A stretch of DNA of 31,742 nt from an uncultured archaeon (GTDB lineage Archaea > Asgardarchaeota > Lokiarchaeia > Sigyniarchaeales > SOKP01). Of the stretch, positions 9,406 to 23,738 are shown piece after piece. The notes under the pieces were generated by a model, which was not told the DNA's origin, searched no databases, and saw only the letters and a program-made list of their open reading frames with translations. The stretch lies in assembly GCA_964508365.1 (NCBI GenBank), contig CAZDTP010000050.1, positions 1-31,742 on the forward strand. Direction: 5' to 3'. The translations under genes were made by a program, and so were the position numbers. How positions within the stretch are numbered: the first letter of the stretch is position 1; each line of letters begins with the position of its first letter.

Positions 9406-9897
9406 CTACCATCTCGTTTTAGAACCTAGTTTAATATCTAATACAGGTGTTCCATTTATCGCATCGAGGTTCTTGACGAATAAAGTAGCGTCTTTAATTT
9501 TAACTAATTTAACATTGGTAATACCAATGCGAGATAATCGATTAGGCGTTCGAGAAGCGAAAATACCTACTTTTTTACCATCTATCCCTCGAGGAAAGGT
9601 CGATCGAATCTTACCTTGCTTATGAAAATAATAAACAACAGTAATCCACTTATCCTCTTCTAATTTGTAAAGAAATGGTAGTTGAGATCCAAAAAGGTGG
9701 ATTTTTGAAACATCATTTCTGCTCCCTTTCAACCCAAATCCTTCCCCTCGTTCTAATAAATTTTCCACAAAACCGATTGGAAAGATCTTAAACGGCTTAT
9801 TATTCTGATATAAACAGGAATAGCATATGAATTTATCATCGAATTTATCAAGTTGGTCTAATCCTTTTTCCTTTTTACATTTCGTACAAACTGGCAT
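9406..9897 (-). CDS. TrmO/TsaA(YaeB)-like SAM-binding methyltransferase with an N-terminal CxxC...CxxC zinc finger
   Basis: GIFASRTPNR, IGITNV, LDAINGTPVLDIK; N-terminal CTKC...CYSC. Confidence 0.8.
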   Translation of the reverse strand: MPVCTKCKKEKGLDQLDKFDDKFICYSCLYQNNKPFKIFPIGFVENLLERGEGFGLKGSRNDVSKIHLFGSQLPFLYKLEEDKWITVVYYFHKQGKIRSTFPRGIDGKKVGIFASRTPNRLSRIGITNVKLVKIKDATLFVKNLDAINGTPVLDIKLGSKTRW

Positions 9898-9918
9898 AGC
9901 TACTAATTAGGTTATTGG

Positions 9919-10851
9919 TTAATTTATTAATTTCCAAAAGGTCTGGTTATTGTAAATTACTTTTTTAATCTTATTCTGCGATTCTAGAATATTCAATTGA
10001 AGCAATAAATCTTGCTCGTTAAACTTTTTTGAACTAAATGTTTCAAAAATTTGTTGCTGTCTCATTGGATGTCTTTCAAGTAAAGTCTTTAATTCCATTT
10101 CAAAATTAGAACTAAATACACTAAATACTCCTCGCTCAGGAAAATTAATATTATTATATTCTCCAAAAACATCGTTTAAAATTGGAATAACATTTTTATC
10201 AGGAATTTGCACCCAACCTTCAGTAGGAGGTCTTATTGGAACGTTAATGTCAATTCTATCGGGTTTAATTAAATCTAATTTATTTTTTATTTTTAATAGT
10301 TCTTCTTTAGAATCGTTAATTCCCTTCATTAACATTATTTCTATCCAGAATTTACCGTTAAATTCTTTCCTAAAATCAATGTATCCTTGAATCATTTTTT
10401 CATACTTTATGGAGGGATGAGGACGATTTATTTTAATGAATAATTTTTTATCTCCAGCATCTAAAGTAGGTAAAACTACATCAGAAACTATAATTTCATC
10501 CTTTACATCGTCATTATATAATAAACTACCATTAGTGATTACACAAATCGGTTTTTTAGATAATTCTTTTGCTTTTAAAATCAGTTCTCCTATACTTTTG
10601 CATAATGTAGGTTCGCCGCTACCTACAAATGTTATGTAATCAAATTTTTCTTTGTTTTGGGTAATACTTTCTTCCATTTCTTTATAAATTTCTTCTTTAA
10701 GGTAAAAATCTCTTCTCTCATTTGTAAAATTAGTCGTTTTTCCCAATTGACAATATATACACTGATAATTGCACGTTTTTGAAGGAATAGGGTCAATCCC
10801 TAAAGATCTCCCTAATCGTCTACTAGGAACAGGTCCATATACGTATTTCAT
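9919..10851 (-). CDS. Radical SAM protein (COG0731/Tyw1-related Fe-S oxidoreductase)
   Basis: YGPVPSRRLGRSLGID, CNYQCIYC, TFVGSGEPTL, ITNGSLL. Confidence 0.9.
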   Translation of the reverse strand: MKYVYGPVPSRRLGRSLGIDPIPSKTCNYQCIYCQLGKTTNFTNERRDFYLKEEIYKEMEESITQNKEKFDYITFVGSGEPTLCKSIGELILKAKELSKKPICVITNGSLLYNDDVKDEIIVSDVVLPTLDAGDKKLFIKINRPHPSIKYEKMIQGYIDFRKEFNGKFWIEIMLMKGINDSKEELLKIKNKLDLIKPDRIDINVPIRPPTEGWVQIPDKNVIPILNDVFGEYNNINFPERGVFSVFSSNFEMELKTLLERHPMRQQQIFETFSSKKFNEQDLLLQLNILESQNKIKKVIYNNQTFWKLIN

Positions 10852-10919
10852 TTTCTCTTTTTATAAAAAATCATAATGATGTAATCAGAATCCAGAATTA
10901 ATTGATTGCGTCTCATCAG

Positions 10920-11366
10920 TTATTTTAAATTCATTAATCCTTTATAATCCTCTATCGCTCTTTTTAATGTTCTATATGCTAATTCAGCACAATGTTTGTG
11001 ATTTTCGGGTAGACCATCTAACGCAGCGTCTATGTCTTCTGGTTTTAGTTTTTCAGCATCATTTACCGATTTATTCTCTATGAGAAGAGTCGTTTGGCAT
11101 CCTGTTGCTACTGAAGCTCCGCAACCGTCAGTAAGGAAATTGGCTTTTTCAATAATATTATCTTTTATTTTTAAAAAGAAAGACATTGTATCCCCACATG
11201 GGCCTTCGTAAGTTTTAGAAATAGTAATCTCATCCTCAGGGGGTTTACCCCAGTTTTTTGGATTGTGATATAATTTAACTATGCGTTCGTTATAATCTCT
11301 AATCTCCTCTTCATAAATAATCTTTTGAAGATTTTCTACGTATAAATCAAACTTATCTTTAGACAT
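10920..11366 (-). CDS. IscU/NifU-like Fe-S cluster scaffold
   Basis: Three scaffold cysteines in GPCGD, DGCGASVA, HCAELA. Confidence 0.9.
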   Translation of the reverse strand: MSKDKFDLYVENLQKIIYEEEIRDYNERIVKLYHNPKNWGKPPEDEITISKTYEGPCGDTMSFFLKIKDNIIEKANFLTDGCGASVATGCQTTLLIENKSVNDAEKLKPEDIDAALDGLPENHKHCAELAYRTLKRAIEDYKGLMNLK

Positions 11367-11445
11367 TTAAATTGAACTACTCTTATTAATTTTAATACAA
11401 TTATTATAAAAATTAATTGTTCAAATGTTTTTCGATTTAGTTCGA

Positions 11446-11859
11446 TTAATGCTGATGGCGGTGATGACTGTGATCGTTATTATCATCTGCGGCAGTATGG
11501 ATTTTTGCTACACCATATCCTTCACCGGCACCAGGAGAACAAATGTTTTCACCACCTTCTAATGTCCCATCTAAAACCTTAGCAATAACACCGTCAACAC
11601 TATCAACAATACCTCTAATAACTTCGATTCCGAATTGGTTAAAAAAACCAATTGCTCTATGACCTATTCCCCCGACGATCATACAGGTTGCACCTTGATC
11701 GTTAATAAAGTTTGGAATGCTCCCGACTTCGTGTCCGGGATTAGGTAACACTTTTTTTTCAACTACCTTGTTATTTTCAATTGAAACAAAAGTAAATTCT
11801 GGAGCTCGACCAAAGTGTTGAGAGACACTTCCCATTTCCGTACAGATAGCTATTTTCAA
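11446..11859 (-). CDS. NifB/NifX-family Mo-Fe cluster-binding protein with His-rich tail
   Basis: KIAI...VSQHFGRAPEF, IVGGIGHRA; C-terminal ENICS and DHSHHRHQH. Confidence 0.85.
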   Translation of the reverse strand: MKIAICTEMGSVSQHFGRAPEFTFVSIENNKVVEKKVLPNPGHEVGSIPNFINDQGATCMIVGGIGHRAIGFFNQFGIEVIRGIVDSVDGVIAKVLDGTLEGGENICSPGAGEGYGVAKIHTAADDNNDHSHHRHQH

Positions 11860-11893: not shown

Positions 11894-11907
11894 AGAATAA
11901 TCATTCA
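11894..11907. promoter_or_regulatory. Palindromic operator AGAATAATCATTCA
   Basis: Identical 14-mer at 21330; lies just downstream of a minus-strand TATA-like TTTATATG (11911-11918) and 35 bp before the NifX start. Confidence 0.7.
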
Positions 11908-11976
11908 AAACATATAAAATTTCCTAGGAAACTAGGCTAGATGACACTGTAATCGCAAAAAAAAGGAAAAAAATTA

Positions 11977-12762
11977 TTAAAATTTGGTTTTTTTTTGGAA
12001 TATAATGATACCAAGAATTATAAAAGCGAGGGTAAATGCAATTATAACTAAAAGTCCACCAAATAATGAAATTGGAAGTTGTTGAGCAGTTCCAGTCGGT
12101 CCAATTAGGGAACTGCTATATAAAGGATCAAACAATCCATCTCCTAGTACAGTTATTTGAAGAAATACCTGCTTAGCCCAGTAAGGAGGAGTGAAAAATA
12201 CCATAACACTTTCAAATGGCCATAAGCTCCCTGAAAGAAATAAAATGGGCAGGTAATAGAATAATGAGATTGCGTTCGCAACTTCTGGAGTTTTTGCTAT
12301 TGCTGAAATAATAATACCAATTCCAACAGATGAAATACCAAATAAAACTGCAATGAAAAATCCGATAAATAATTCAAAAATGCCTTTAAATGGGACTTGT
12401 AGCACAGCATATCCAAGGATGAACATGATGAGAATCTGAAGAGAAATCATGAGAGTTTCAGATAAAAGAGCTCCTAAAAATAGATTTTTTCTTCCTGTGG
12501 GCATTGTATCCAACCGTTCAAGCATACCTGATGTTTTATCTACAGCAAATGATATTGCTGCACTTGTGGTACTTGCTGCTGTTATATATATTATCATTCC
12601 TGGAAAGCTATATTGGAATGTCTCACGACCAAGAAAAGAGTAAAACAGTAATGTAAACATAAACGCAAAGCCTAGAGAAAAAACTAAATACTGCCAATGG
12701 CGCGTCTTATCTTTAACATTTTTGTTTGCTATTTGGATAACTTTATTCTCTAACAAGTTCAT
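11977..12762 (-). CDS. ABC-2 type exporter permease
   Basis: About six hydrophobic segments; DKTSGMLERLDTMP motif; coupled to an upstream ATPase. Confidence 0.88.
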   Translation of the reverse strand: MNLLENKVIQIANKNVKDKTRHWQYLVFSLGFAFMFTLLFYSFLGRETFQYSFPGMIIYITAASTTSAAISFAVDKTSGMLERLDTMPTGRKNLFLGALLSETLMISLQILIMFILGYAVLQVPFKGIFELFIGFFIAVLFGISSVGIGIIISAIAKTPEVANAISLFYYLPILFLSGSLWPFESVMVFFTPPYWAKQVFLQITVLGDGLFDPLYSSSLIGPTGTAQQLPISLFGGLLVIIAFTLAFIILGIIIFQKKTKF

Positions 12763-12763
12763 T

Positions 12764-13735
12764 CTAATCTCTCAACCTCCTTCCTGTTAAATTAAGAAAT
12801 ACATCCTCAAGTGAGTTTTGCCTAAACTTCATATTTTCAACCTCATCAATGTTGTCTATAAGCCCTTGTTGTAATAGTTTCATAAGGTTTTTTAAACCAC
12901 CCTGAAAAGAAATTAATAAGGTATTTCTTTCTTTCCTGCTACTTTCATTCCAATTTACAACAAATGGAATGTTTTTTATATTGTCTCTTACTATCTCAAG
13001 GTCTTCTTGTTCGATGAATGAGACTTCTAACGCGTTATCACTTCCATATTTCTCCTTTAATTCGGTGGGAGTTCCTTCAGCAATTATCTTTCCTTGGTCA
13101 ATAAATGCAATCCGATCACTCAAAGAATCAGCCTCAACCATATCGTGTGTCATAAGAATTATTGTAATATCCTTATTTTTCAAATCTCGAATATAGTCCC
13201 ACACAAGACGTCTTGCTTGAGGATCAAGACCTGCCGTAGGTTCATCAAGAAACAATATTTTCGGTTCAAATACCAAAGACATTGCGAGATTTAAACGTCG
13301 TTGCATACCACCTGAAAAATGTTTAGACCAGTCTTTTCTTCCTGCTATACCAAAGTCTTCTAAGATTTTTCTTGTTTTCTCTTTCGCTTCTTTACGAGTC
13401 ATTCCATGCATAATTGCTATAAACTCAACATTCTCCTCAGCCTTTAGAACTTCATAAATTGTGATAACCTGTGGACACACTCCTATTTTCTTAACAATCT
13501 CTTTTTTCCCAGTTAAGATACTATATCCATAAACATTTGCATCACCTGCAGTTGGAGTTAAAACAGTGGTTAACATGCGTACTAATGTAGTTTTTCCCGC
13601 ACCATTAGGACCAAGAATACTAAATAATTCTCCCTTTCTTATCTTTAAGGATACTCCATCGACTGCTTTAACTTCTTTAAAATGTTTTTTAATATCTTTA
13701 ATTTCAATTGCGATAAATTCTTTACTTACGCTCAT
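12764..13735 (-). CDS. ABC exporter ATP-binding protein (DrrA-like)
   Basis: GPNGAGKTT, FSGGMQRR, LFLDEPTAGLD, MTHDM, SLEDVFLNLTG. Confidence 0.95.
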   Translation of the reverse strand: MSVSKEFIAIEIKDIKKHFKEVKAVDGVSLKIRKGELFSILGPNGAGKTTLVRMLTTVLTPTAGDANVYGYSILTGKKEIVKKIGVCPQVITIYEVLKAEENVEFIAIMHGMTRKEAKEKTRKILEDFGIAGRKDWSKHFSGGMQRRLNLAMSLVFEPKILFLDEPTAGLDPQARRLVWDYIRDLKNKDITIILMTHDMVEADSLSDRIAFIDQGKIIAEGTPTELKEKYGSDNALEVSFIEQEDLEIVRDNIKNIPFVVNWNESSRKERNTLLISFQGGLKNLMKLLQQGLIDNIDEVENMKFRQNSLEDVFLNLTGRRLRD

Positions 13736-13992
13736 TTTTTCATAATCACATTAATTTTTCGTTTTTCATTTTTATTATGAATAATTACTTTATTGTAAAA
13801 AAGAATATATCAGAAGAGGGGTCCAAATTTTGATTTTTTCAAAATCTGTAAACCAATTTATTTAATTTATTACTAGGAATCTTGATTTATTAATACTAAA
13901 GTGGAAAAAGTTTTAGTAAAAATTTATTTACTAAGTTTAAATTGAAAATAATTAACTATTTTTCAATCCGGACTTCATTATGTATATAGATA

Positions 13993-14484
13993 CTAATAAT
14001 TTTTACGGAGGTTCCAAATTATTATCTCATTTATCGTTGAGATAATTGTAATAACAATACTAATATACAAAGCAGTGAAAAGACCAAGATTCGCAACTAA
14101 TATAAAAGGAACAATAGTTGATGCACTTATCCAGCAAAAAACAGTTATATAATAAGCATATAAGAATCTTCTTTTATACCTTGAAATCCTAACCGACTCA
14201 TCAGTTTTACTTAGTAAATTAAAAGCAGCTCCTCCAATCCCCGAAAGTTCGTATTTATTTCCTTTTTGTCTCAGTAATAGTTCTAAACTTTTAAGATGAT
14301 AAGAAAGAGTTGGACTATCAATAGGTTCTATTTTATTTTTAATCTCTGTGAATGATAATTGTTTTTCCCCCAGAAACTTTACAATATCTCTTCTGACCTG
14401 ATGATTTAAAGATTTAAAAATTTCATCTTCATTAGGAATAGATTTTTTCTTCTTTTTTTCCTCTATATCTCTATTATTAAGCAT
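13993..14484 (-). CDS. ArsR-like winged-HTH regulator with two C-terminal transmembrane helices
   Basis: IFKSLNHQVRRDIVKFL, LSFTEI, SPTLSYHLKSL; hydrophobic C-terminus. Confidence 0.8.
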   Translation of the reverse strand: MLNNRDIEEKKKKKSIPNEDEIFKSLNHQVRRDIVKFLGEKQLSFTEIKNKIEPIDSPTLSYHLKSLELLLRQKGNKYELSGIGGAAFNLLSKTDESVRISRYKRRFLYAYYITVFCWISASTIVPFILVANLGLFTALYISIVITIISTINEIIIWNLRKNY

Positions 14485-14652
14485 ATTTGCATCAATAAAT
14501 TCCTTTTTTCTGATATATAAGATTAATCAATTTTGAATAAAAAAGTTTACATAGAATCTTAGATGTAAGCAGACATCCTTGCGAAGGATCAGGATTTAAG
14601 CTTTCACCGAGAATAACGATTATAACGAATGTTTAATGAATGATTTTTTTAG

Positions 14653-14741
14653 TGAATGATTATTCATAATGCTTAAATATTGTGTTTGATATATGATACA
14701 TAGGATGTAATGAATGATTATTGAATAATAATAATTATTCA
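14653..14741. promoter_or_regulatory. Three copies of the palindromic operator upstream of DUF5320
   Basis: TGAATGATTATTCA (14653-14666), TGAATGATTATTGA (14711-14724), ATAATAATTATTCA (14728-14741); TATA-like TTAAATA at 14673. Confidence 0.7.
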
Positions 14742-14795
14742 AAATCTAAATTTCATAAAAAAACACACAAAATATAAGGAGATGAAAATAAAATA

Positions 14796-15173
14796 ATGCC
14801 AGGTGGAGATAGAACTGGCCCTAGAGGTCTTGGAGCAAGAACTGGAAGAGGTTTAGGATATTGTGCAGGATATGATGCTCCAGGATATGCTTACGGTCCA
14901 GGATATGGTTATGGAAGAGGTGGGGGTCGAGGGATGGCGTGGGGTTACGGACGAGGAAGAGGATATGGGCGAGGATGGGCTTATAGAGAGCCTTATTATC
15001 CTCCAATTATGCCTACTGCCCCGGTTTATGCTTCAAGAATCCCTTTAGAGCCAGTAGATAAATTAACAATGCTAAAACAGGAAAAAACTTACTTAGAATC
15101 TGAGTTTAAAGGGATCAGTAATGCTCTTGAAGACATAGCCAAAAGCATTGAAGAATTAGAAAAAAAAGAATAA
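14796..15173 (+). CDS. DUF5320-family protein
   Basis: MPGGDRTGPRGLGARTGRGLGYCAG signature; G/Y/R-rich middle; C-terminal coiled coil. Confidence 0.85.
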   Translation: MPGGDRTGPRGLGARTGRGLGYCAGYDAPGYAYGPGYGYGRGGGRGMAWGYGRGRGYGRGWAYREPYYPPIMPTAPVYASRIPLEPVDKLTMLKQEKTYLESEFKGISNALEDIAKSIEELEKKE

Positions 15174-15223
15174 TTTTTTTTTCATTTTTTAAAAATTAAC
15201 AAATAAGAAGTCCAGAATATTTA

Positions 15224-15631
15224 ATGTTGAGTACGATGCCGCAAATTAATAATACCCACGAAGATTATCTTAAAGCAATTTATATGATATCTAGGAAAAA
15301 CAGGGGCGGATGGGTCTCAAATTCAGAAATTTCTAACATTCTTAAAGTTAAGCCCGCATCAGTGTCAAATATGTTATATAGACTAAAAGAGAATAATTAC
15401 ATAAATTGGTATCCAAGGAAATCAGTAAGACTAACTGCGAAAGGCAAAAGAATCGCGTTAACAACTATTAATAAGTTTAACCAATTGAAGCATTTCTTTG
15501 AAGATGTTTTAGGCGTGGATAATACATATGAACTCGACGAACTTTGCTGCAAAATAGAGCATACTATAACGCCAGAAATATCAGATGCTATAGAACACCT
15601 TTCTCTTAAAGTAATTCAAGAAAATATTTAA
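15224..15631 (+). CDS. DtxR/MntR-family metal-dependent regulator (no FeoA domain)
   Basis: HEDYLKAIY, VKPASVSNMLYRL, VRLTAKG, CCKIEH; true start may be ATG 15236. Confidence 0.88.
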   Translation: MLSTMPQINNTHEDYLKAIYMISRKNRGGWVSNSEISNILKVKPASVSNMLYRLKENNYINWYPRKSVRLTAKGKRIALTTINKFNQLKHFFEDVLGVDNTYELDELCCKIEHTITPEISDAIEHLSLKVIQENI

Positions 15632-15676
15632 AAAATAAACTCAAAATTTAAATTTTTTACTATTCATTTAGAAATC

Positions 15677-15829
15677 ATGTCAGATGTTAATTTAAAAGTA
15701 AACGATGAAAAAGTTCCTTTAAACGATTTTATGGAAGAAATGTTGAAGAATTTGATGTTGGCATATTTAAAAGCAGCAAAAGGCATCCCTGAAGACATAA
15801 AATCGATTAATATTGAAATAGAGCTTTAA
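15677..15829 (+). CDS. 50-aa protein resembling the C-terminal domain of archaeal MobB
   Basis: Manual translation MSDVNLKVNDEKVPLNDFMEEMLKNLMLAYLKAAKGIPEDIKSINIEIEL; below the ORF-track cutoff; followed by a T-rich tract. Confidence 0.7.
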   Translation: MSDVNLKVNDEKVPLNDFMEEMLKNLMLAYLKAAKGIPEDIKSINIEIEL

Positions 15830-15916
15830 TTCTTTTTTCTTTATTATCAAAATTCAGAATCTAAAATACCGTAATCAAGAATATCTTTAGTTGAAACTAT
15901 CTTTCTCATAGATTTT

Positions 15917-15933
15917 AAAAAAAAAAAAAAAAA
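15917..15933 (-). terminator. Oligo-T (T17 on minus strand) terminator of the MFS gene
   Basis: A17 run on + strand 12 bp past the stop codon at 15945. Confidence 0.55.
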
Positions 15934-15944
15934 GGATAGAATTA

Positions 15945-17282
15945 TTATAATTCTTGGATGGTTTTTTGCCTTGCTAATTTTTCTTCTTCCGTAAGTTCAA
16001 TTTCGCCTCTTTTTACGAACATCATCATAACAAATGCTAAGATGAAGAATATGGAACCATTAAGAAGTAAGAATGGTATTCCTAATAAATCAGTAAGACC
16101 GCCTACGAACATCGGACCTAATATAGCAGCAAAGTAACTGAAAAAGTAATACAGTCCTGTATATGTCCCAATTTTTTTTTCACTAGGAGCTAATTCCCAT
16201 ACAATCACGATAGAATTGGTGTTAATCATTGCCCATCCGATTCCAAGTAAGGCAAGTGGAATTGCCATTATGGCTAATGCAACTTTGGCGAGCCCCATGA
16301 AGAATCCTATTATCAACATAACCGTCCAAATTATAACTCCTATTTTAATTGTTTTTCTTCTCCCAATTTTAGCAGGAAGTAACGATAGAGGATATATTGA
16401 TATCAAAAGAGGAATAGTAACTATAAAAGGTAAGAATCCCGCAAGACCTGGGCTGTAACCTAACACCTGCACTCCATAAATTGAAATAAGCGCAACAATT
16501 CCCTGATATCCGATGAACCAAAAGAAGATCGCTAATAACATAAAAATGGTGCTCTTATCTTCCTCAGAGGCTATGTCCTTAATACTCTCGATCAACCCAG
16601 GAGTAGTCTTTTCTTTTTTGACTTTTTCTCCTTCCTTTCCCTCCATTTCTAGAATTAACTGATAACTGTATGAATCTTTTTCTTTAATTCGCCATAATAG
16701 TACCACTAAAGCAACTACCATTATTACTGAAATAATAAGAAATAATAGTTGTAGTCCAACGGTATCAACTAAGATACTGAACCCATATCCGATTGCAACT
16801 CCAAAGCCCCCCATAAGATTTATTATTGCGTTTCCTTTACTTCTATTGACTGGTCTTACGAAATCTGGCATCAATGAAACAGCTTGTGCCCTATAAAAAC
16901 CCATACTTAATCCAAAACAGAACATATAGATTATTAGCATTATTATCGAAGTTTGTGTTGGAATTAAAGAGAAAAATAGCGCGCCTAAAGGAACTCCAAT
17001 AATCAAATATGGTATTCTTCTTCCGAATTTAGTACGTGTGTTATCGGAGATTGAACCCATAATTGGTTGAATTATTACTCCAATAATGTTATCTAGTGCC
17101 ATCAGTAACCCAACGAGAAATAAGGAGGTTAAATACCCAGTCATTTTAATGGGATCATATATTAATAATAAAGGAACTTGTGCGTTATATAGTGCCCAGG
17201 CAATTTCAGAAGAAAAAAAAGCTAATCCAATTGTAAAAGTCTGTCCAACTCTAAATTTTGATGTTTCTGACATTTTTATCAC
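15945..17282 (-). CDS. MFS transporter (SLC45/maltose-sucrose-like)
   Basis: About 12 TMs; QPIMGSISDNTRTKFGRRIPY, LMPDFV, GTYTGLYY; ATG at 17273 is a likely start. Confidence 0.9.
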   Translation of the reverse strand: MIKMSETSKFRVGQTFTIGLAFFSSEIAWALYNAQVPLLLIYDPIKMTGYLTSLFLVGLLMALDNIIGVIIQPIMGSISDNTRTKFGRRIPYLIIGVPLGALFFSLIPTQTSIIMLIIYMFCFGLSMGFYRAQAVSLMPDFVRPVNRSKGNAIINLMGGFGVAIGYGFSILVDTVGLQLLFLIISVIMVVALVVLLWRIKEKDSYSYQLILEMEGKEGEKVKKEKTTPGLIESIKDIASEEDKSTIFMLLAIFFWFIGYQGIVALISIYGVQVLGYSPGLAGFLPFIVTIPLLISIYPLSLLPAKIGRRKTIKIGVIIWTVMLIIGFFMGLAKVALAIMAIPLALLGIGWAMINTNSIVIVWELAPSEKKIGTYTGLYYFFSYFAAILGPMFVGGLTDLLGIPFLLLNGSIFFILAFVMMMFVKRGEIELTEEEKLARQKTIQEL

Positions 17283-17423
17283 ATTTTTATTTTAAAGTAG
17301 ATTTTTAAGATAATATACAATAATTTTCTTTTGTTATATAAAATTCTTTTTTTTTATATAATTAAAAGGATTTATAATTTTTCTTAATTTTTTCTTATAA
17401 TAAGACTAAAAGGATATATAGAA

Positions 17424-18308
17424 ATGCACATAGAACCCGAATGTATACCGTGTCTTTTTAATCAAGTGTTAAGAGCCTTTCGATTGTTGAAACCTGATAT
17501 ATCCCGTAAAATCGTATTAGATACTCAGAAGAAGTTAATGGAATATCTTATAAATTTTGATATAGAAAAAAAAGCATCTCCGATAATCGGTAAAGTAGCA
17601 TATAATCTTGTTGCTGAAGCTTTAGGTGTAAAGGATCCTTACGCTTCAATAAAGAAACAATACAATCAATTAGCTTTACAATTCTACGATGAGGCTAGAA
17701 AAATCGTTAATAGCGCTAAAGATCCTTTATTTAAGGCAATTATAGTTGCTGCTCTTGGGAATACAATAGATTTAGGCACCAATCATAAAATTGACTTCAT
17801 AAACGATATTAAAAACTTTACGCCAGACAATTTAGCAATAAACGACTACGAAACATTTAAACAATCACTTCTGGATACTGACCACTTACTTATTTTATTA
17901 GATAATGCAGGGGAGATTGTATTTGATAAGTTATTGGTAGAAACTATGCTAAAGATTTTTCCAGAGTTAGAAATTACGTGTTCGGTTAGATCAGCCCCAA
18001 TTATCAACGACGCAACCATAGAAGATGCGAAATTCGTTGGTTTAACTGATCTAGTTCAGGTTATAGAAGCAAGTGACACGCCGGGTATTGACATTCCAAC
18101 AACCACAGATGAGTTCAAGAAGCACTTTTTTCTAAAGGATGGCGTGATTTTATCAAAAGGTCAAGGTAATTTCGAAAGCTTATACGGTATGGAAATTCCA
18201 GATAAAGAAGTCTATTATTTACTAAAAGCAAAATGTTCATTAATGGAAAGACTGTTTTCCGTTAAAGAAGGAAACATAATTTTTAAGAGAAAAACTGAGA
18301 ATTTTTAA
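17424..18308 (+). CDS. DUF89/ARMT1-like metal-dependent phosphatase
   Basis: ECIPCL, GNTID, LDNAGEIVFD, PIINDAT, SKGQGNFESL. Confidence 0.9.
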   Translation: MHIEPECIPCLFNQVLRAFRLLKPDISRKIVLDTQKKLMEYLINFDIEKKASPIIGKVAYNLVAEALGVKDPYASIKKQYNQLALQFYDEARKIVNSAKDPLFKAIIVAALGNTIDLGTNHKIDFINDIKNFTPDNLAINDYETFKQSLLDTDHLLILLDNAGEIVFDKLLVETMLKIFPELEITCSVRSAPIINDATIEDAKFVGLTDLVQVIEASDTPGIDIPTTTDEFKKHFFLKDGVILSKGQGNFESLYGMEIPDKEVYYLLKAKCSLMERLFSVKEGNIIFKRKTENF

Positions 18309-18354
18309 AGTTGTATAAAGAGAAAAAGGTTGCAAATCAGGATTTAGCTTAGTT

Positions 18355-18849
18355 CTATTTATTTCTCGATTTTGCAATTGCTTCAGTGAAAAATCCAAAG
18401 TCTCGAATTTCTTTTTTATTATTTTCGCCATTAACTCGGTTAAAGTACTCAACAATTTGGTCGTATAAGATTTTTTTAAAAGATTCAAACTGAGAAACAT
18501 CGGTATAATCGCTGATCTCGTTTTGGTAAAGGTGATAAAACATGTCGAGTGCTTTTTCTGCTTCTTCCCTCATATCTTCTTTGACAAAATCTTTATCCAT
18601 TATCGCAATTAAAACTAGGTCAAATTTATTCACAATTATCATCTGGATCGACAAACCTTTAATTGTAATTTCCTCAATCTTTCCCAGGCTCTCCGAACCG
18701 AATAAGGACAACGCCCCTACAAACGATGAGAGCAACATAGGATTAATTTCAGAATCCAAAATGAGATCTAATAAATAAATACCAGTTTCCTTACAAATAA
18801 CGATTCCTTTTAAAAGTTTTGATACATCTGATTTTTGAGCTAAGTTGAT
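18355..18849 (-). CDS. Longin-like domain protein (start uncertain; frame open to 18855)
   Basis: LLKGIVICKETGIYLL-DL...INPMLLSSFVGALSLFG...IIVNKFDLVLIAIMD...ALDMFYHLY...FESFKKIL matches the beta-beta-alpha-beta-beta-beta-alpha-alpha longin pattern; the track's TTG start (18759) omits the first two strands. Confidence 0.6.
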   Translation of the reverse strand: MNLAQKSDVSKLLKGIVICKETGIYLLDLILDSEINPMLLSSFVGALSLFGSESLGKIEEITIKGLSIQMIIVNKFDLVLIAIMDKDFVKEDMREEAEKALDMFYHLYQNEISDYTDVSQFESFKKILYDQIVEYFNRVNGENNKKEIRDFGFFTEAIAKSRNK

Positions 18850-19090
18850 TTTAGATTACCTTTAACCTGTTATTATGAAGATTTTCAAATTCTCCAATTG
18901 AGTAATAAAATTAAATAGTTGTTCGTATAAATTCTTTTATAATTTATCAGACTATATATTATGGTAATATATACTCCCAGAATTCATAGGACTTTAAGGA
19001 CTTTTAACTTTTTGTCGGTTATAGCACATTATTAATTTTTTTTTACAGATAAAGACTTGATAATTTATAATCGTTAACTTTATCTTCTTA

Positions 19091-19104
19091 CGAATATTCA
19101 TTCA
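19091..19104. promoter_or_regulatory. Operator copy CGAATATTCATTCA
   Basis: 12/14 match to AGAATAATCATTCA; 32 bp before the NifX frame at 19137. Confidence 0.6.
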
Positions 19105-19136
19105 ATTAAATAATAATATAAGTAGAGCTGATATAA

Positions 19137-19520
19137 ATAAATAAAGTTATAGGAATTCCTTCCGATGGACCAGAACTATCCGATACAATATCAGATCATT
19201 TTGGTCATTGTAATTATTTCGTAGGAATCGAAATTGACGAAGGAAAAAACATAAAAAAGCTATTTTCTTTACAAAATAATGGGCATACAGGTTGTATGGA
19301 ACCAGTTAATAACATGAAAGAAAGAAAAATAACAGACATGATTGTAGGGGGAATAGGTGGGCGACCATACGCTGGGTTCACTCAATATAGAATTGGATTA
19401 TATAAAGGGGTAAAGGGAACTCTGTCTGAGAATATCCAACTATTTTTACAAGGTAATTTGCAATCCTTAAATGAACCCATATGTGCAGGTGGCGATAGCC
19501 CAAATCATGCCTACGATTAA
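19137..19520 (+). CDS. NifB/NifX-family protein (5' end at ATA; ORF track gives only its C-terminal half)
   Basis: Frame reads INKVIGIPSDGPELSDTISDHFGHCNYF...NNGHTGCMEPV...IVGGIGGRP...ICAGG; in-frame TAA at 19134; first canonical start is ATG 19296. Confidence 0.75.
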   Translation: MNKVIGIPSDGPELSDTISDHFGHCNYFVGIEIDEGKNIKKLFSLQNNGHTGCMEPVNNMKERKITDMIVGGIGGRPYAGFTQYRIGLYKGVKGTLSENIQLFLQGNLQSLNEPICAGGDSPNHAYD

Positions 19521-19548
19521 GAAATCAAAATAAAAAATTATAAAAAAA

Positions 19549-20421
19549 TTATTTTTCTAATTCTTCTCTTATTTTAGATACAGCTACTTTGAATGCCCTA
19601 GTACTTTCGCTTTCAGGGTATTTTAAAACAAACGGTAAACCCCGATCTCCCTGTTGACTAACTTCGATCTCAAAAGGAATTTGTCCTAAAAATTTAATAT
19701 TAAAATCTTTGGAAGCCTTTTCTGCGCCACCAGGAGGGTAAAGATCAATATATTCGCTACAGTGAGGGCATTTAAAACCGGACATATTTTCAATTATCCC
19801 CATGACATGTCTTTCCATTGTTTTTGCCATTACAATTGTCTTTCGAGCATCCATAAGCGCAACTTCTTGCGGTGTGGATACTACAATTACATTCTCGTCG
19901 GGGATAAGCTGTAAAATATCAAGAGTTTCGTCAGAAGTGCCAGGAGGTAAATCGCAGATTAGGTAATCAAGGTCTCCCCATTTTGCTTCTCCCAAAAATT
20001 GCCTTACAGCTGACATTTTCATTGGACCTCGCCAAATAACTGGAGTATCGCTATTTTCTATTAAAAAAGCCATACTAACGACTTTTGTATTTAAGGGCCC
20101 ATCAACGGGGTAAAACTTCTTTGCGTCTGGGTCAACTCGAGGTCTAACATTAGGGTCAATACCTAACATCTTATTTACATTCGGCCCCGTTATGTCTACA
20201 TCTAATATCCCTACGCGTAAACCTACACTTGCCAAGCTCATCGCTAGGTTTACTGCTACAGTTGTTTTACCAACACCGCCCTTCCCTGATATGATCACAA
20301 TCTTATGCTTTATTTTAGCCATATTATTATGAATATTCACCATTTGCTGGTCTAATAATTCTTGCTTGCCTTGGTTCACTGTTTCTTTTAAATCAATATC
20401 TGGTATTTCATCTTCTCCCAT
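19549..20421 (-). CDS. mrp: Mrp/ApbC/NBP35 Fe-S cluster carrier ATPase
   Basis: SGKGGVGKTT, WRGP, DLPPGTSD, ENMSGFKCPHC. Confidence 0.95.
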   Translation of the reverse strand: MGEDEIPDIDLKETVNQGKQELLDQQMVNIHNNMAKIKHKIVIISGKGGVGKTTVAVNLAMSLASVGLRVGILDVDITGPNVNKMLGIDPNVRPRVDPDAKKFYPVDGPLNTKVVSMAFLIENSDTPVIWRGPMKMSAVRQFLGEAKWGDLDYLICDLPPGTSDETLDILQLIPDENVIVVSTPQEVALMDARKTIVMAKTMERHVMGIIENMSGFKCPHCSEYIDLYPPGGAEKASKDFNIKFLGQIPFEIEVSQQGDRGLPFVLKYPESESTRAFKVAVSKIREELEK

Positions 20422-20598
20422 AATTCATTCACTTTTTCATTTGTTATTTACTATTATTTTCTTTAAGTTATGCTTATGATTTTAAAAATACAAATATCTC
20501 CTTTAATTTATCGTTAATATTCTGAAAAGGTTTACATACTTTCAATTATATTTCAGATTAATTTATCCAGTTATAATTATAAAATTAAAATCACTTTA

Positions 20599-20612
20599 TG
20601 AATAATTATTCT
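20599..20612. promoter_or_regulatory. Operator copy TGAATAATTATTCT in the divergent mrp/NifX spacer
   Basis: Perfect 12-bp palindrome GAATAATTATTC at 20600-20611. Confidence 0.65.
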
Positions 20613-20795
20613 TTATTTTTTAATTTTTCCCTCATATTATATAAGGAATTGGCATAGAAGAAATTTATAAAGAATCAGAAGATGGTTTTATAATAATCTT
20701 AAAATTTTTAGTTAATTATTCAAGTCTATAACCACATATTTGGTTAAATATAAATCAAATTAATATTAAGATTAGTATAGAGAGGTTATATTAAA

Positions 20796-21182
20796 ATGGA
20801 AATAGTAGCAGTACCGAGTTATAGGGAGGGAGGATTAAATGAAATAGTCCATCCCAAATTTGGAAGATGTGATAGTTTTACTTTCATTACTATAGATAAT
20901 AATGAAATTACGCAAGTTAAAGTAATTGAAAATTCTGCAGCTGATGAAACCCGAAGTGCCGCAACTCTAGCAGCTAAGATTGTTAGAAATAATGGCGCCG
21001 AAAAGCTGATTGTTAACAAATTGGGATTAAATGCTTCCATGGCACTAAATTCATTAAAGATTAAAACATTCCGCGCTCCTGATGGAAAAATATTAGTAAA
21101 AGATTTATTAGCCCTTTACTTGGATGGAAAAATAAAAATGGCCCCGTCAGAGGATCTTGTATTTGATAAATTTCTGGATTAA
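20796..21182 (+). CDS. NifB/NifX-family protein
   Basis: IVAVPS...VHPKFGRCDSF, LIVNKLGLNA. Confidence 0.85.
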   Translation: MEIVAVPSYREGGLNEIVHPKFGRCDSFTFITIDNNEITQVKVIENSAADETRSAATLAAKIVRNNGAEKLIVNKLGLNASMALNSLKIKTFRAPDGKILVKDLLALYLDGKIKMAPSEDLVFDKFLD

Positions 21183-21329
21183 ACGGTATTCCTTTGTGGA
21201 ATTTTTTTAATTGCTCGTTTTTTTGAAATCAGAACCCAATAAATTGCAATTTTAAGCAAACAAGCCGATAATTCTCCTTAATTTTAAGAAGAGGGATTAT
21301 AAGTTATTTGTTCTTTATAGTGATTATTT

Positions 21330-21343
21330 AGAATAATCATTCA
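21330..21343. promoter_or_regulatory. Operator copy AGAATAATCATTCA
   Basis: Identical to 11894-11907; lies downstream of TATA-like TTTATAG (21314-21320) and upstream of the NifX-MinD-MinD genes. Confidence 0.7.
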
Positions 21344-21403: not shown

Positions 21404-21850
21404 ATGGTAATAATTGGTATTCCTACCTTTGGAAATAAAGGCTTGAATGAGGTTATTAATAATCGTTTTGGAAGGTGCAACAGCTTCACATTTGTTACAA
21501 TTGAGAATAACGAGATAGTAGAAGTTAAATCCGTTGCAAATGATGCGCAGGGTGCGATGGGTGGTGCGGGAATTCAAGCGGCTCAAATCATTGGTAATAA
21601 CGGAGCCACAGAGGTTATTGTAGGCAATTTAGGTCCTAACGCGATGAATTCTTTAAGCGCTTTAAATCTTAAAGTTTATCAATCACAGGGTGGAAGTTTA
21701 ACTGTGAAAGAATTAATAGATTTGCGTTTAAGTGGTAAATTGCAAGTGCTTACGTCTTCAAATGTTGGAGCTCACGCAGGTATGGGCGGTGGTATGGGCG
21801 GTGGCAGAGGCGGTGGTATGGGTGGTGGCGGTAGAGGAAGACAAATTTAA
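21404..21850 (+). CDS. NifB/NifX-family protein with Gly/Met/Arg-rich tail
   Basis: IIGIPT...NNRFGRCNSF, GGAGIQAAQ, IVGNLGPNA; SD-like GGTGA upstream. Confidence 0.9.
   Translation: MVIIGIPTFGNKGLNEVINNRFGRCNSFTFVTIENNEIVEVKSVANDAQGAMGGAGIQAAQIIGNNGATEVIVGNLGPNAMNSLSALNLKVYQSQGGSLTVKELIDLRLSGKLQVLTSSNVGAHAGMGGGMGGGRGGGMGGGGRGRQI
21779..21826 (+). repeat. 12-bp coding tandem repeat (4 units) encoding GMGG/GRGG
   Basis: GGTATGGGCGGT GGTATGGGCGGT GGCAGAGGCGGT GGTATGGGTGGT. Confidence 0.8.
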
Positions 21851-21900
21851 TTGAGTAAAATTAATTTGAATAGCTTAGTAAATAAAACGCAAGATTAAGA

Positions 21901-22818
21901 ATGCTCAAATCAAAAATTATTTGTGTTACAGGTGGCAAAGGCGGGACGGGGAAAACGCTGGTTGCCGTAAATTTGGCAATAATGTTTAAGAATCGAGGAT
22001 ATAAAGTACTTCTTATCGACGGAGATGTTGAGAACCCTAATACTTTTTTATTATTAAACGCAAAGCTTAAGAATAAAACAGAAGTTCATTATTTCCTACC
22101 TAAAATCATTGAAGATAAATGTACTAGGTGTGGGTTGTGTGCAGAAAATTGTGAAACACACGCACTCTTATACATAAAAAATTCTTATCCAATTCCGATG
22201 TCGACGGTCTGTTCAGGTTGCAAATTATGTTATAAGATTTGTCCGACTAACGCCATTGAACCCGACTTAAAAGTTATTGGATGGATTTACACAGCCTCCG
22301 CATTTAAAATTGATCTTTTTCTAGGCGAGTTGAAGCCATCCGAAGCGCGCTCAGCCGTAATTGTAAATAAATTGATTAAAAATTTAGAAGGAGTTATAAA
22401 AACAGAGCCAGAAAAATATGACATCGTTATATTGGATACAGCGCCTGGAGCTCATTGTGACGTAGAAGCATTAATTAATAGTGCTGATCTTGTCATACCA
22501 GTTACAGAACCCACGAGATTCGGAAAGCTTGATTTATTGAGAATCATAGAATTGATTGATTTATTGAAGAAAGAATACAAGACAATTGTGAATCGATCAT
22601 CGCTACTGGGTTATAAAGAGAAATTTCTATTAGAATTGGAAGAAAAAGGTATAGAAGTTTTAGGTGATATCCCCTTAGACGAAGATATTGTGAGATCATA
22701 TTGCCAAGGTATTCCTTTAATGGAAAAAAGCAGAAATTCTGATAAGAATGGGATGGGATATAAATCGTTTAACGAAATTTTTGAAAATCTAATGGAGTGG
22801 GGTGAATTTTCAAAGTGA
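21901..22818 (+). CDS. MinD-superfamily P-loop ATPase with inserted ferredoxin domain (COG1149)
   Basis: GGKGGTGKT, DGDVENPN, CTRCGLCAENC, CSGCKLCYKICP, VTEPT. Confidence 0.92.
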   Translation: MLKSKIICVTGGKGGTGKTLVAVNLAIMFKNRGYKVLLIDGDVENPNTFLLLNAKLKNKTEVHYFLPKIIEDKCTRCGLCAENCETHALLYIKNSYPIPMSTVCSGCKLCYKICPTNAIEPDLKVIGWIYTASAFKIDLFLGELKPSEARSAVIVNKLIKNLEGVIKTEPEKYDIVILDTAPGAHCDVEALINSADLVIPVTEPTRFGKLDLLRIIELIDLLKKEYKTIVNRSSLLGYKEKFLLELEEKGIEVLGDIPLDEDIVRSYCQGIPLMEKSRNSDKNGMGYKSFNEIFENLMEWGEFSK

Positions 22819-23738
22819 ATAGAAAGAAGATTGCCGTTATCTCTGGAAAAGGAGGAGTAGGAAAAACTTCACTCGTAGCTTCGCTAGCTAGTATAGCTCA
22901 TAAAGATCACGATGTTAATCTAATAGTATTAGACTGTGATGTCGATGCCCCTAATTTAGCCCTAATATTACCACCTAAGTCTAAGGAAGATATAATAACC
23001 CAAGACATGTATACTACAAAAAAAGCCACGTTCTTAGAGGAAAAATGCACACAATGCAAACAATGTTATAACGAGCATTTTTGTGAATTTAACGCGTTAA
23101 ATTGGGACGAAAATAATAATATTCCTGTTATCGACTATTTAGCGTGTGAGGGGTGTGGAGCGTGTAAAGTTTTATGCCCTGAAAGTGCTTTTGAAATTAA
23201 TCCTGTTAAAAGCGGAGAAATAATATCTTATGAAACCAGCAGCGAATTACCTTTAATTTATGGAAAAACTAAATTGGGAAGTACTACTTCTGGGTTATTG
23301 GTTTCAGAGGTTAAGGAACACACCCAAAATCTCGAAAAATATAATGATACTAATTTAATTCTAATTGATGGTCCACCAGGAATAGGTTGTCCCGTAATTG
23401 CTACAGTTTCAGGTTTAGACTATGTTGTTGCAATAACAGAGCCAACACCTTCAGGTTTGCACGATTTAAAACGAGCACTTGAAATGGTTAACCAGTTTAA
23501 CATACCTTTCGGGATCGTGATCAACAAAGCAGATTTAAAAAGCGCATCTCAGAAGCAATTAAACAGATATATTCAAAAATCGAGTCATGAAATTTTAGGC
23601 AGAATTAACTTCGACCTGTCCATTCCAGAAGCAATGTCATACGCAGAACCTGTTGTAGATTATGCCCCAGAATCAGTGTCCAGTCAGGCAATTAACAAAA
23701 TATACGCAAAATTAAAATCTATTCTCTTACAATTATAA
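22815..23738 (+). CDS. MinD-superfamily P-loop ATPase with inserted ferredoxin domain (COG1149), partner copy
   Basis: SGKGGVGKT, DCDVDAPN, CEGCGACKVLCP, DGPPGIGCP, TEPTPSGLHDL; GTGA overlap with the previous gene. Confidence 0.92.
   Translation: MNRKKIAVISGKGGVGKTSLVASLASIAHKDHDVNLIVLDCDVDAPNLALILPPKSKEDIITQDMYTTKKATFLEEKCTQCKQCYNEHFCEFNALNWDENNNIPVIDYLACEGCGACKVLCPESAFEINPVKSGEIISYETSSELPLIYGKTKLGSTTSGLLVSEVKEHTQNLEKYNDTNLILIDGPPGIGCPVIATVSGLDYVVAITEPTPSGLHDLKRALEMVNQFNIPFGIVINKADLKSASQKQLNRYIQKSSHEILGRINFDLSIPEAMSYAEPVVDYAPESVSSQAINKIYAKLKSILLQL

Follow-up and report, generated by a model that had tools for sequence, protein, structure and literature searches.

The window considered here is the whole of contig C50 (31,742 bp) from the genome of an uncultured archaeon of the Lokiarchaeia (G000; 4.07 Mb, 149 contigs, 31.8% GC), one of the Asgard archaea, which are the closest prokaryotic relatives of eukaryotes. 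It contains seven copies of a 14-bp palindrome, TGAAT-N4-ATTCA, upstream of genes for NifX-like proteins, DUF5320, an Mrp/NBP35 carrier and MinD-type ATPases with ferredoxin inserts. That these copies form a genuine operator and regulon we regard as practically certain, and sequence comparisons suggest that the operator is read by DUF134, a helix-turn-helix (HTH) protein encoded on another contig, an assignment to which we give a probability of roughly 75-80%. An earlier sequence-only reading of the window had proposed a single repressor for scattered units on both strands and had named two regulator genes close to the sites as candidates; the single regulon is borne out, the choice of a local regulator is not. 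We refer to genomes, contigs, loci and families by running labels (G, C, L and f, respectively).

Seven Operator Copies at Archaeal Promoters

The seven 14-mers listed in that reading were all recovered, at 11894 (AGAATAATCATTCA), 14653 (TGAATGATTATTCA), 14711 (TGAATGATTATTGA), 14728 (ATAATAATTATTCA), 19091 (CGAATATTCATTCA), 20599 (TGAATAATTATTCT) and 21330 (AGAATAATCATTCA). The first and the last are identical in all 14 letters, as had been claimed, and every one of the seven is intergenic. Five are strong, the 14711 site is moderate and the 14728 site is weak (Table 1). In orthologues the position of the 14711 site is occupied by a full site, and one relative (L013) carries a perfect second site at the position matching 14728. 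Three further "weaker matches" (13779, 14637 and 20711) scored below 8 bits with a matrix built independently of the window (see below) and are indistinguishable from background.

At the nifX1 promoter, read on the minus strand, a TATA-like box (TTTTATAT, 11912-11919) is followed after 4 nt by the operator and after a further ~35 nt by the TTG start codon. In the DUF5320-dtxR promoter, a conserved TATA-like box (TTAAATAT, 14673-14680) starts 6 bp past the end of the 14653 site. The 21330 site begins 24 bp after another conserved box (TTATAAGT, 21298-21305; the sequence TTATAARTTAT is conserved there in relatives) and should therefore cover the transcription start. The description of the sites as lying at or just downstream of TATA-like boxes thus holds for 11894, 14711/14728 and 21330, but the 14653 site lies just upstream of its box. 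Archaeal repressors typically have their operators beside the TATA box or over the expected start point, and the placement of the palindrome beside or behind TATA-like boxes suggests that it most likely mediates repression.

Enrichment over Chance

Sites were scored with two matrices, one derived from the seven window sites and the other only from sites in other genomes. With the first, all ten genome matches of at least 15 bits were intergenic, although intergenic DNA makes up only ~14% of the genome (13.6% by a crude open reading frame map, at 23.5% GC), and four of the ten lay on other contigs. The independent matrix gave at least 8.7 bits to each of the seven window sites and at least 13.5 bits to five of them, placed five of its 18 top genome matches in the window, and yielded a longer consensus, a palindrome of 20 bp with the sequence TTnTGAATAATTATTCAnAA.

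The loose pattern TGAAT-N4-ATTCA, with up to one mismatch, is only weakly enriched in the window, about 2-fold (nine occurrences versus 4.2 ± 1.9 in shuffled sequences, with 2 of 100 shuffles reaching nine), and intergenic DNA has a GC content of only 23%, both of which could suggest that AT-rich spacers generate such matches by chance. The refined core GAAT[AG]AT[TC]ATTC, however, occurs ten times in the 4.07-Mb genome, and four of these occurrences fall in the 31.7-kb contig, where 0.08 would be expected (50-fold enrichment). Across 40 relatives, which served as the comparison set for site counts and DUF5320 loci, TGAATRWTYATTCA gave 84 forward matches as opposed to 11 for the reversed, non-complemented control, and two complete genomes of a sister family gave 14 and 22 matches with up to one mismatch, as opposed to 2 and 2, so that the controls are 7 to 11 times lower. 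As the site also keeps its position before orthologues across families, and perfect copies are present in genomes of 45-50% GC, a chance origin has next to no probability; the palindrome does not occur genome-wide at the background frequency of AT-rich spacers.

Conservation of the Operator in Related Genomes

In G000 itself, a site precedes all four stand-alone PF02579 (NifX-like) genes and both PF17253 (DUF5320) genes, the second of the latter lying on contig C79 with its site 80 bp upstream. The claim that one operator joins NifX-like, DUF5320, Mrp and MinD-ferredoxin units on both strands is thereby upheld, and it extends to other contigs and to related genomes. Among the relatives, 28 of 29 DUF5320 loci of the order have a site within ~150 bp upstream, at protein identities down to 38%; the sites usually lie at -42 to -50 and -95 to -105, other families of the order included, and five further genera of the family also have a site before DUF5320. 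For NifX-like gene 4, 12 of 13 close orthologues retain the site at -74, while the DNA further upstream has diverged. In the two complete sister-family genomes, sites precede DUF5320, NifX and feoAB. The alignment of DUF5320-dtxR promoters from relatives shows a recurrent order, namely an operator, 6 bp, the conserved CTTAAATAT, ~30 bp, one or more further operators and a leader with GGAGATGA. The sites are thus conserved upstream of both DUF5320 and NifX orthologues.

DUF134 as the Probable Reader

G000 encodes a single DUF134 protein (PF02001; Table 1), which has a DeoR-type HTH with the helix VSQPTFSRIL and a C-terminal CxxC-N15-17-CxxC ribbon. Its HTH profile matches the DNA-binding domain of Bacillus subtilis DeoR (7bhy, 8r7y; E = 3e-6), in which the corresponding helix reads ISRPTVSRLL. 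The left operator of DeoR, ATTGAACAAAATTTCAAT, has been solved in complex; it is a palindrome with a TGAA-N6-TTCA core, to which these domains bind as a dimer (PMC11229326). The consensus of the sites described here, TGAATAATTATTCA, shares both this core and its spacing with the DeoR operator of dra-nupC-pdp. Two arginines of the DeoR domain are reported to contact bases, one of them the G of TTGAA (PMC11229326); one contacting Arg position appears to be invariant in DUF134, and the other appears to be Gln or Arg depending on helix type. The two systems also differ. DeoR belongs to the SorC family, with an HTH of the sigma-70-region-4 type, whereas in DUF134 a C-terminal Cys4 ribbon takes the place of the SorC sugar-phosphate effector domain. 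DeoR acts as a tetramer on a 39-bp bipartite operator of a bacterial nucleoside catabolic operon (PMC11229326), in contrast to the single or tandem 14-bp sites found here at archaeal TATA promoters of iron-sulfur genes.

The association between DUF134 and the operator is also seen at the DUF134 genes themselves, whose loci were compared among Promethearchaeota relatives. In the phylum-wide sample, DUF134 genes that encode an [IV]SQPT..R helix are immediately preceded by perfect TGAAT-N4-ATTCA palindromes in families f21, f14 and part of f9, at a GC content of 42-50%, and none of these loci contains a DtxR gene. The f21 promoter reads TTTAAATAT, 3 nt (tta), TGAATATATATTCA, 12 nt and ATG, which places the palindrome between TATA box and start. 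In families f24, f23 and f26, TTTGTGCATATGCACAAA stands at -45 to -60 of DUF5320 and agrees with the TGAAT palindrome in its 5-4-5 geometry and its outer TG...CA. The DUF134 gene lies within the DUF5320 locus in f24, where it is of the SRGT.WR type, and in f26. Searches of G168 (96% complete), G166, G160 and G092 found no true DtxR, and DUF134 is present in every one of them. Helix type follows half-site, in that DUF134 proteins with an SRGT.WR helix go with TGTGC-type palindromes (TGTGC-N4-GCACA); G000 has neither the SRGT.WR helix nor any intergenic TGTGC-N4-GCACA. Within the genus, a weak TGAATAATTATT.. site, apparently an autoregulatory remnant, precedes the DUF134 gene at -34 to -54, and DUF134 is present in 13 of the 14 relatives with at least three forward-strand matches.

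A second operator class, TTTGTGC-N4-GCACAAA, was observed before DUF5320 at six loci of other Asgard families (L131, L132, L133, L139, L147 and L152).

Several observations weigh against DUF134 as the reader. In this family its gene lies apart from the regulon and is preceded by no more than a weak site. One 100% complete genome, G012, retains DUF134 with almost no sites, no NifX and no DUF5320; conversely, DUF134 was not found in site-bearing G023, G109 and G179, which are fragmented metagenome-assembled genomes, and G043 (family f8) pairs an SRGT-type helix with a TGAAT-type site. Wherever the gene of DtxR-A, the DtxR/MntR-family protein encoded in the window, was found, it belongs to an operon controlled by a site, and this holds for four different gene contexts; no second conserved palindrome was seen in the alignment of DUF5320-dtxR promoters from relatives. 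Finally, feoA of G000 has no clear box of either the TGAAT or the TTAG kind (see below), with only a degenerate TTAACTAAAACTAA beside its TATA box.

The genus-level presence and absence profiles of DtxR-A and DUF134 rest on fragmented assemblies. In G015 (contig C49) and G021 (contig C86), the contig ends exactly at the neighbour gene of DUF134 (L190, L191), so that the apparent absence of DUF134 from these genomes reflects an assembly break. A search of G007 for the DUF134 locus found no synteny.

Alternative Readers of the Operator

DtxR-A might itself read the palindrome and, with Fe(II) or another metal bound, repress its own DUF5320-dtxR operon together with the other units, in the manner of a classical autoregulated metalloregulator. 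Its gene stands behind DUF5320 and the sites in ~15 genomes of the genus, as it does in four other genera, and where it has been relocated it still follows strong sites: after the gene of a 63-aa CxxC protein, with which it forms one operon (G006 and G016), divergent from NifX (G024), or alone with two sites (G001). The protein retains a Cys-x2-Glu-His site resembling C102/E105/H106 of DtxR, and a Fur-family protein (PF01475) was looked for in the 100%-complete genome and not found. DtxR-A, DUF5320 and the motif are jointly absent from G003, G009, G012 and G020, and in family f2 the motif also precedes feoAB, which is a typical DtxR target. The strong sites that precede DtxR-A in all four gene contexts are, however, equally explained if DtxR-A is a target of the regulator.

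The boxes known for the DtxR family speak against this reader. Archaeal autorepression of the MDR1 type, in the DtxR family, uses palindromic operators at promoters. The palindrome described here is similar to DtxR, IdeR and TroR boxes in that it is found at metal-related promoters, with a DtxR gene in the controlled operon and feoAB among the targets in relatives, but its TGAAT... sequence is unrelated to TTAGG..., the Haloferax TroR box being TTTAGGC-N3-CCTAAA (PMC10783522). Moreover, feoA promoters of 11 relatives from three families carry a separate box, TTAG-N6-CTAA (e.g., TTAGACATGTCTAA, TTAGGTGCACCTAA and TTAGGTATAACTAA). In G032, G025 and G037 this box is proximal to feoA and a TGAAT site lies ~120-170 bp further upstream, and in G022, where the only DtxR found is the DUF5320-linked one, a shared spacer (L331, 1840-2120) runs from feoA through TTAGGTATAACTAA and two TGAAT sites to DUF5320-dtxR. 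The occurrence of TTAG boxes beside TGAAT sites at feoA argues for two operator classes, with the DtxR type having a box of its own. In addition, DtxR-A was not found in G007 (98% complete), which has nine perfect sites, the same palindrome precedes DUF134 genes in families without a DtxR nearby, and DUF5320 is preceded by a palindrome of like geometry in genomes that yielded no DtxR. Because feoA has a box of its own, because some families lack DtxR and because sites stand at DUF134 genes, we consider DtxR-A, one of the local candidates of the sequence-only reading, an unlikely reader. It is a conserved member of the regulon and probably a target of the switch, reading the different TTAG-N6-CTAA box.

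The arrangement in which feoA is divergent from DUF5320-dtxR, with both box types in one spacer, was seen in G022, G019 and G013 (L331, L342, L343 and L345). In G000, searches for a DtxR-type box with TTAGACATGTCTAA allowing mismatches, with TTAG-N6-CTAA and with TTA[AG]-N5-ACTAA all returned background counts. Three similar intergenic boxes, TTAGATG(C/T)NCCTAAAA, are present in this genome at C23:12820, C82:12095 and C74:1446, one of them ~190 bp upstream of a gene for an MgtE-like cation transporter, and they possibly represent its DtxR-type box.

A different factor could read the sites, or two factors, such as DUF134 and DtxR-A, could share them. Neither of these candidates has a phyletic pattern that fits perfectly, and an AsnC-type regulator is encoded in the G032 cluster; yet no other regulator gene recurred next to sites in the ~150 loci that were inspected for such genes, and the match to the DeoR operator and the sites at DUF134 genes favour DUF134. 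We therefore hold a different or second reader to be improbable.

The gene of a membrane-anchored ArsR/DUF7347 protein (13993-14484) adjoins the triple site of G000 and is divergent from it, and ArsR/SmtB operators of the 12-2-12 type have a TGAA-N6-TTCA core that is like the present one in letters and spacing, which would suit an SmtB/CzrA-like repressor. The core proposed in the sequence-only reading is real, but its attribution to ArsR/SmtB does not stand, as the core better fits the operator of a DeoR-type HTH and is found without a co-occurring ArsR-family gene. The ArsR/DUF7347 gene adjoins sites only in G000 and its nearest relative, G011, and ten orthologous loci have no operator site nearby. 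Its distribution also differs from that of the operator: many operator-bearing genomes (e.g., G002, G008, G014, G017, G032 and G037) yielded no clear orthologue, and G012 and G020 have orthologues without the operator. Synteny, phyletic pattern and the site-free orthologous loci effectively rule out this protein as the reader.

The otherwise AT-rich spacer between the ArsR and DUF5320 genes contains a GC-rich inverted repeat, ATCCTTGCGAAGGAT (14575-14589). The surrounding part of the spacer could not be aligned with the six more distant relatives compared (G011 left out), and the repeat may belong to an inserted ArsR/DUF7347 gene.

Proposed Mechanism and Significance

We propose that TGAAT-N4-ATTCA, extended to TTnTGAATAATTATTCAnAA, is the operator of a dimeric HTH repressor that would act on at least five promoters of the contig, those of nifX1-iscU-radical SAM, DUF5320-dtxR, nifX2, the divergent pair mrp/nifX3, and nifX4 with the two minD/fer4 genes. 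A DUF134 dimer bound to the palindrome would occlude the core promoter, so that the transcription machinery could not assemble or transcription could not start. Profile comparisons match the C-terminal ribbon of DUF134 weakly to HypA, Rpo12 and rubredoxin-type sites; its role may be structural, or it may act as a sensor of iron or iron-sulfur status. Release of the repressor would then co-induce the NifX-like carriers, Mrp, the MinD-ferredoxin pair, DUF5320, the CxxC miniprotein and DtxR-A, and DtxR-A, as a target of the switch, would in turn act on iron-uptake genes through TTAG-N6-CTAA boxes.

It is tempting to speculate, at somewhat less than even odds, that DUF134 proteins are metal- or iron-sulfur-sensing master repressors of ORP-type genes (see below) across Asgard archaea and perhaps in other anaerobes, that a helix switch (SQPT..R with TGAAT-N4-ATTCA versus SRGT.WR with TGTGC-N4-GCACA) sets parallel regulons, and that DUF134 stands above DtxR in Lokiarchaeia, linking iron-sulfur demand to iron uptake. 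We know of almost nothing on gene regulation in Asgard archaea, and no paper characterising DUF134, DUF5320 or a comparable Asgard regulon turned up in the literature searched. The present analysis describes a conserved operator with defined targets, about a dozen transcription units, in these archaea. If the proposal is correct, two widespread "unknown" families would acquire roles, DUF134 as a regulator and DUF5320 as a core member of an iron-sulfur regulon, and the ORP complex, which is anaerobe-specific and poorly understood, would be tied to a dedicated circuit unlike its sigma54 control in Desulfovibrio. The analysis of the window adds to this picture that the ArsR candidate can be dismissed, that feoA promoters of relatives carry boxes of two types, and that DUF134 genes of several families have sites of their own.

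Resemblance to the ORP Complex

The gene set of the window appears to be an archaeal counterpart of the genes for the "orange protein" (ORP) iron-sulfur complex of Desulfovibrio together with an Mrp carrier. In Desulfovibrio vulgaris, the ORP operons (DVU2103-2109) encode Orp3 and Orp4, which are MinD-like with ferredoxin motifs, and Orp8, a single NifX-like domain (PMC6345978). Desulfovibrio Orp9/MrpORP is an Mrp protein fused to a C-terminal NifX-like ("Di-Nase") domain, and control is exerted by sigma54 on two divergent operons (PMC6345978). Both systems comprise two MinD-like ATPases with 2x[4Fe-4S] inserts (Orp3/4), a single-domain NifX-like protein (Orp8) and an Mrp/NBP35 carrier, and in both the units are divergent and co-regulated. 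By Pfam and NCBIfam matches, which were used to assign gene products throughout, NifX-like 4 of the operon 21404..23738 resembles Orp8, and its MinD/CbiA pair resembles Orp3/Orp4. The Mrp protein of the window covers only the N-terminal positions 1-251 of MrpORP in NCBIfam (322 bits, below the 450-bit cut-off); Mrp and the NifX domain are thus separate genes in the window, whereas they are fused in MrpORP. Further differences are the palindromic operator at TATA promoters here, as opposed to sigma54-dependent promoters in Desulfovibrio, and the presence here of four NifX paralogues, DUF5320, DtxR and a CxxC miniprotein. To our knowledge, sigma54 is absent from archaeal promoters.

Genes behind the Sites and Further Candidate Targets

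The operator copies and the genes discussed are collected in Table 1. The four genes on the minus strand from nifX1 to the TrmO_N-like gene (9406..11859) probably form one operon, since they share a strand and are separated by gaps of only 22-80 bp.

Table 1. Operator copies in the window, the genes behind them and the DUF134 gene of G000
Feature	Position	Strand	Context or properties	Score or source
Operator copy, strong	11894..11907		35 bp upstream of the TTG start of NifX-like gene 1 (minus strand)	15.6 bits, independent matrix
Operator copy, top match of the genome	14653..14666		DUF5320-dtxR promoter	21.2 bits
Operator copy, moderate	14711..14724		C13 -> G; ~30 bp downstream of TATA-like box, at the expected transcription start	11.2 bits
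Operator copy, weak	14728..14741		Half-degenerate, G2 lost; 55 bp upstream of DUF5320 start	8.7 bits
Operator copy	19091..19104		Upstream of NifX-like gene 2	13.5 bits
Operator copy	20599..20612		Divergent spacer between mrp (-) and NifX-like gene 3 (+), ~180 bp from either start	17.0 bits
Operator copy	21330..21343		61 bp upstream of NifX-like gene 4	
TrmO_N-like	9406-9897	-		Pfam
Radical SAM	9919-10851	-		Pfam
NifU_N/IscU-like	10920-11366	-		Pfam
NifX-like 1 (PF02579)	11446-11859	-		Pfam
DUF5320 (PF17253)	14796..15173	+	RGG-rich N-terminus, coiled-coil C-terminus; first gene of the DUF5320-dtxR operon	
DtxR/MntR-family regulator (DtxR-A)	15224..15631	+	135 aa; Cys109-x2-Glu112-His113 metal site	
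NifX-like 2	~19137..19520	+		
Mrp/NBP35 iron-sulfur carrier ATPase	19549..20421	-	290 aa	
NifX-like 3	20796..21182	+		
NifX-like 4	21404..21850	+	First gene of the operon 21404..23738	
Two MinD/CbiA ATPases	21901-22818, 22815-23738	+	2x[4Fe-4S] ferredoxin inserts; in operon with NifX-like 4	
DUF134 (PF02001)	G000:C14:25381-25794		Single copy in the genome; 137 aa	6e-20

The reading frame of NifX-like 2 opens after a TAA at 19134 and has no ATG, GTG or TTG before codon 54 (19296), and it encodes the N-terminus typical of the family (..KVIGIPSDG..) ahead of this first canonical start. A non-canonical start (perhaps the ATA at 19137), a sequencing error or decay of the gene may account for this.

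Outside the window, a strong site at C79:11568 lies 43 bp upstream of the gene for the 63-aa CxxC protein (C79:11334-11525; L001). This small protein, with a CWGC...CxxC pattern and without a Pfam match, is conserved (also L055:814-1005 and L057:1920-2120) and belongs to the regulon. Two strong sites (C8:48881 and C8:49013) are located 200-330 bp upstream of an operon for the small and large subunits of a [NiFe] hydrogenase, another strong site (C9:20623) precedes the gene of a four-helix membrane protein, and a weaker one (C22:50425) lies 75 bp upstream of an aldehyde:ferredoxin oxidoreductase gene. The hydrogenase and the oxidoreductase, both rich in iron-sulfur clusters, are possible additional members of the regulon. 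Beside a proteasome beta-subunit gene on contig C21, a spacer of at least 560 bp, in which no open reading frame of at least 40 aa was found, contains two motif-like sites, AGGATGATCATTCA and TGAATGATCATACA, at 55830 and 56010; their target could be a small gene or an RNA.

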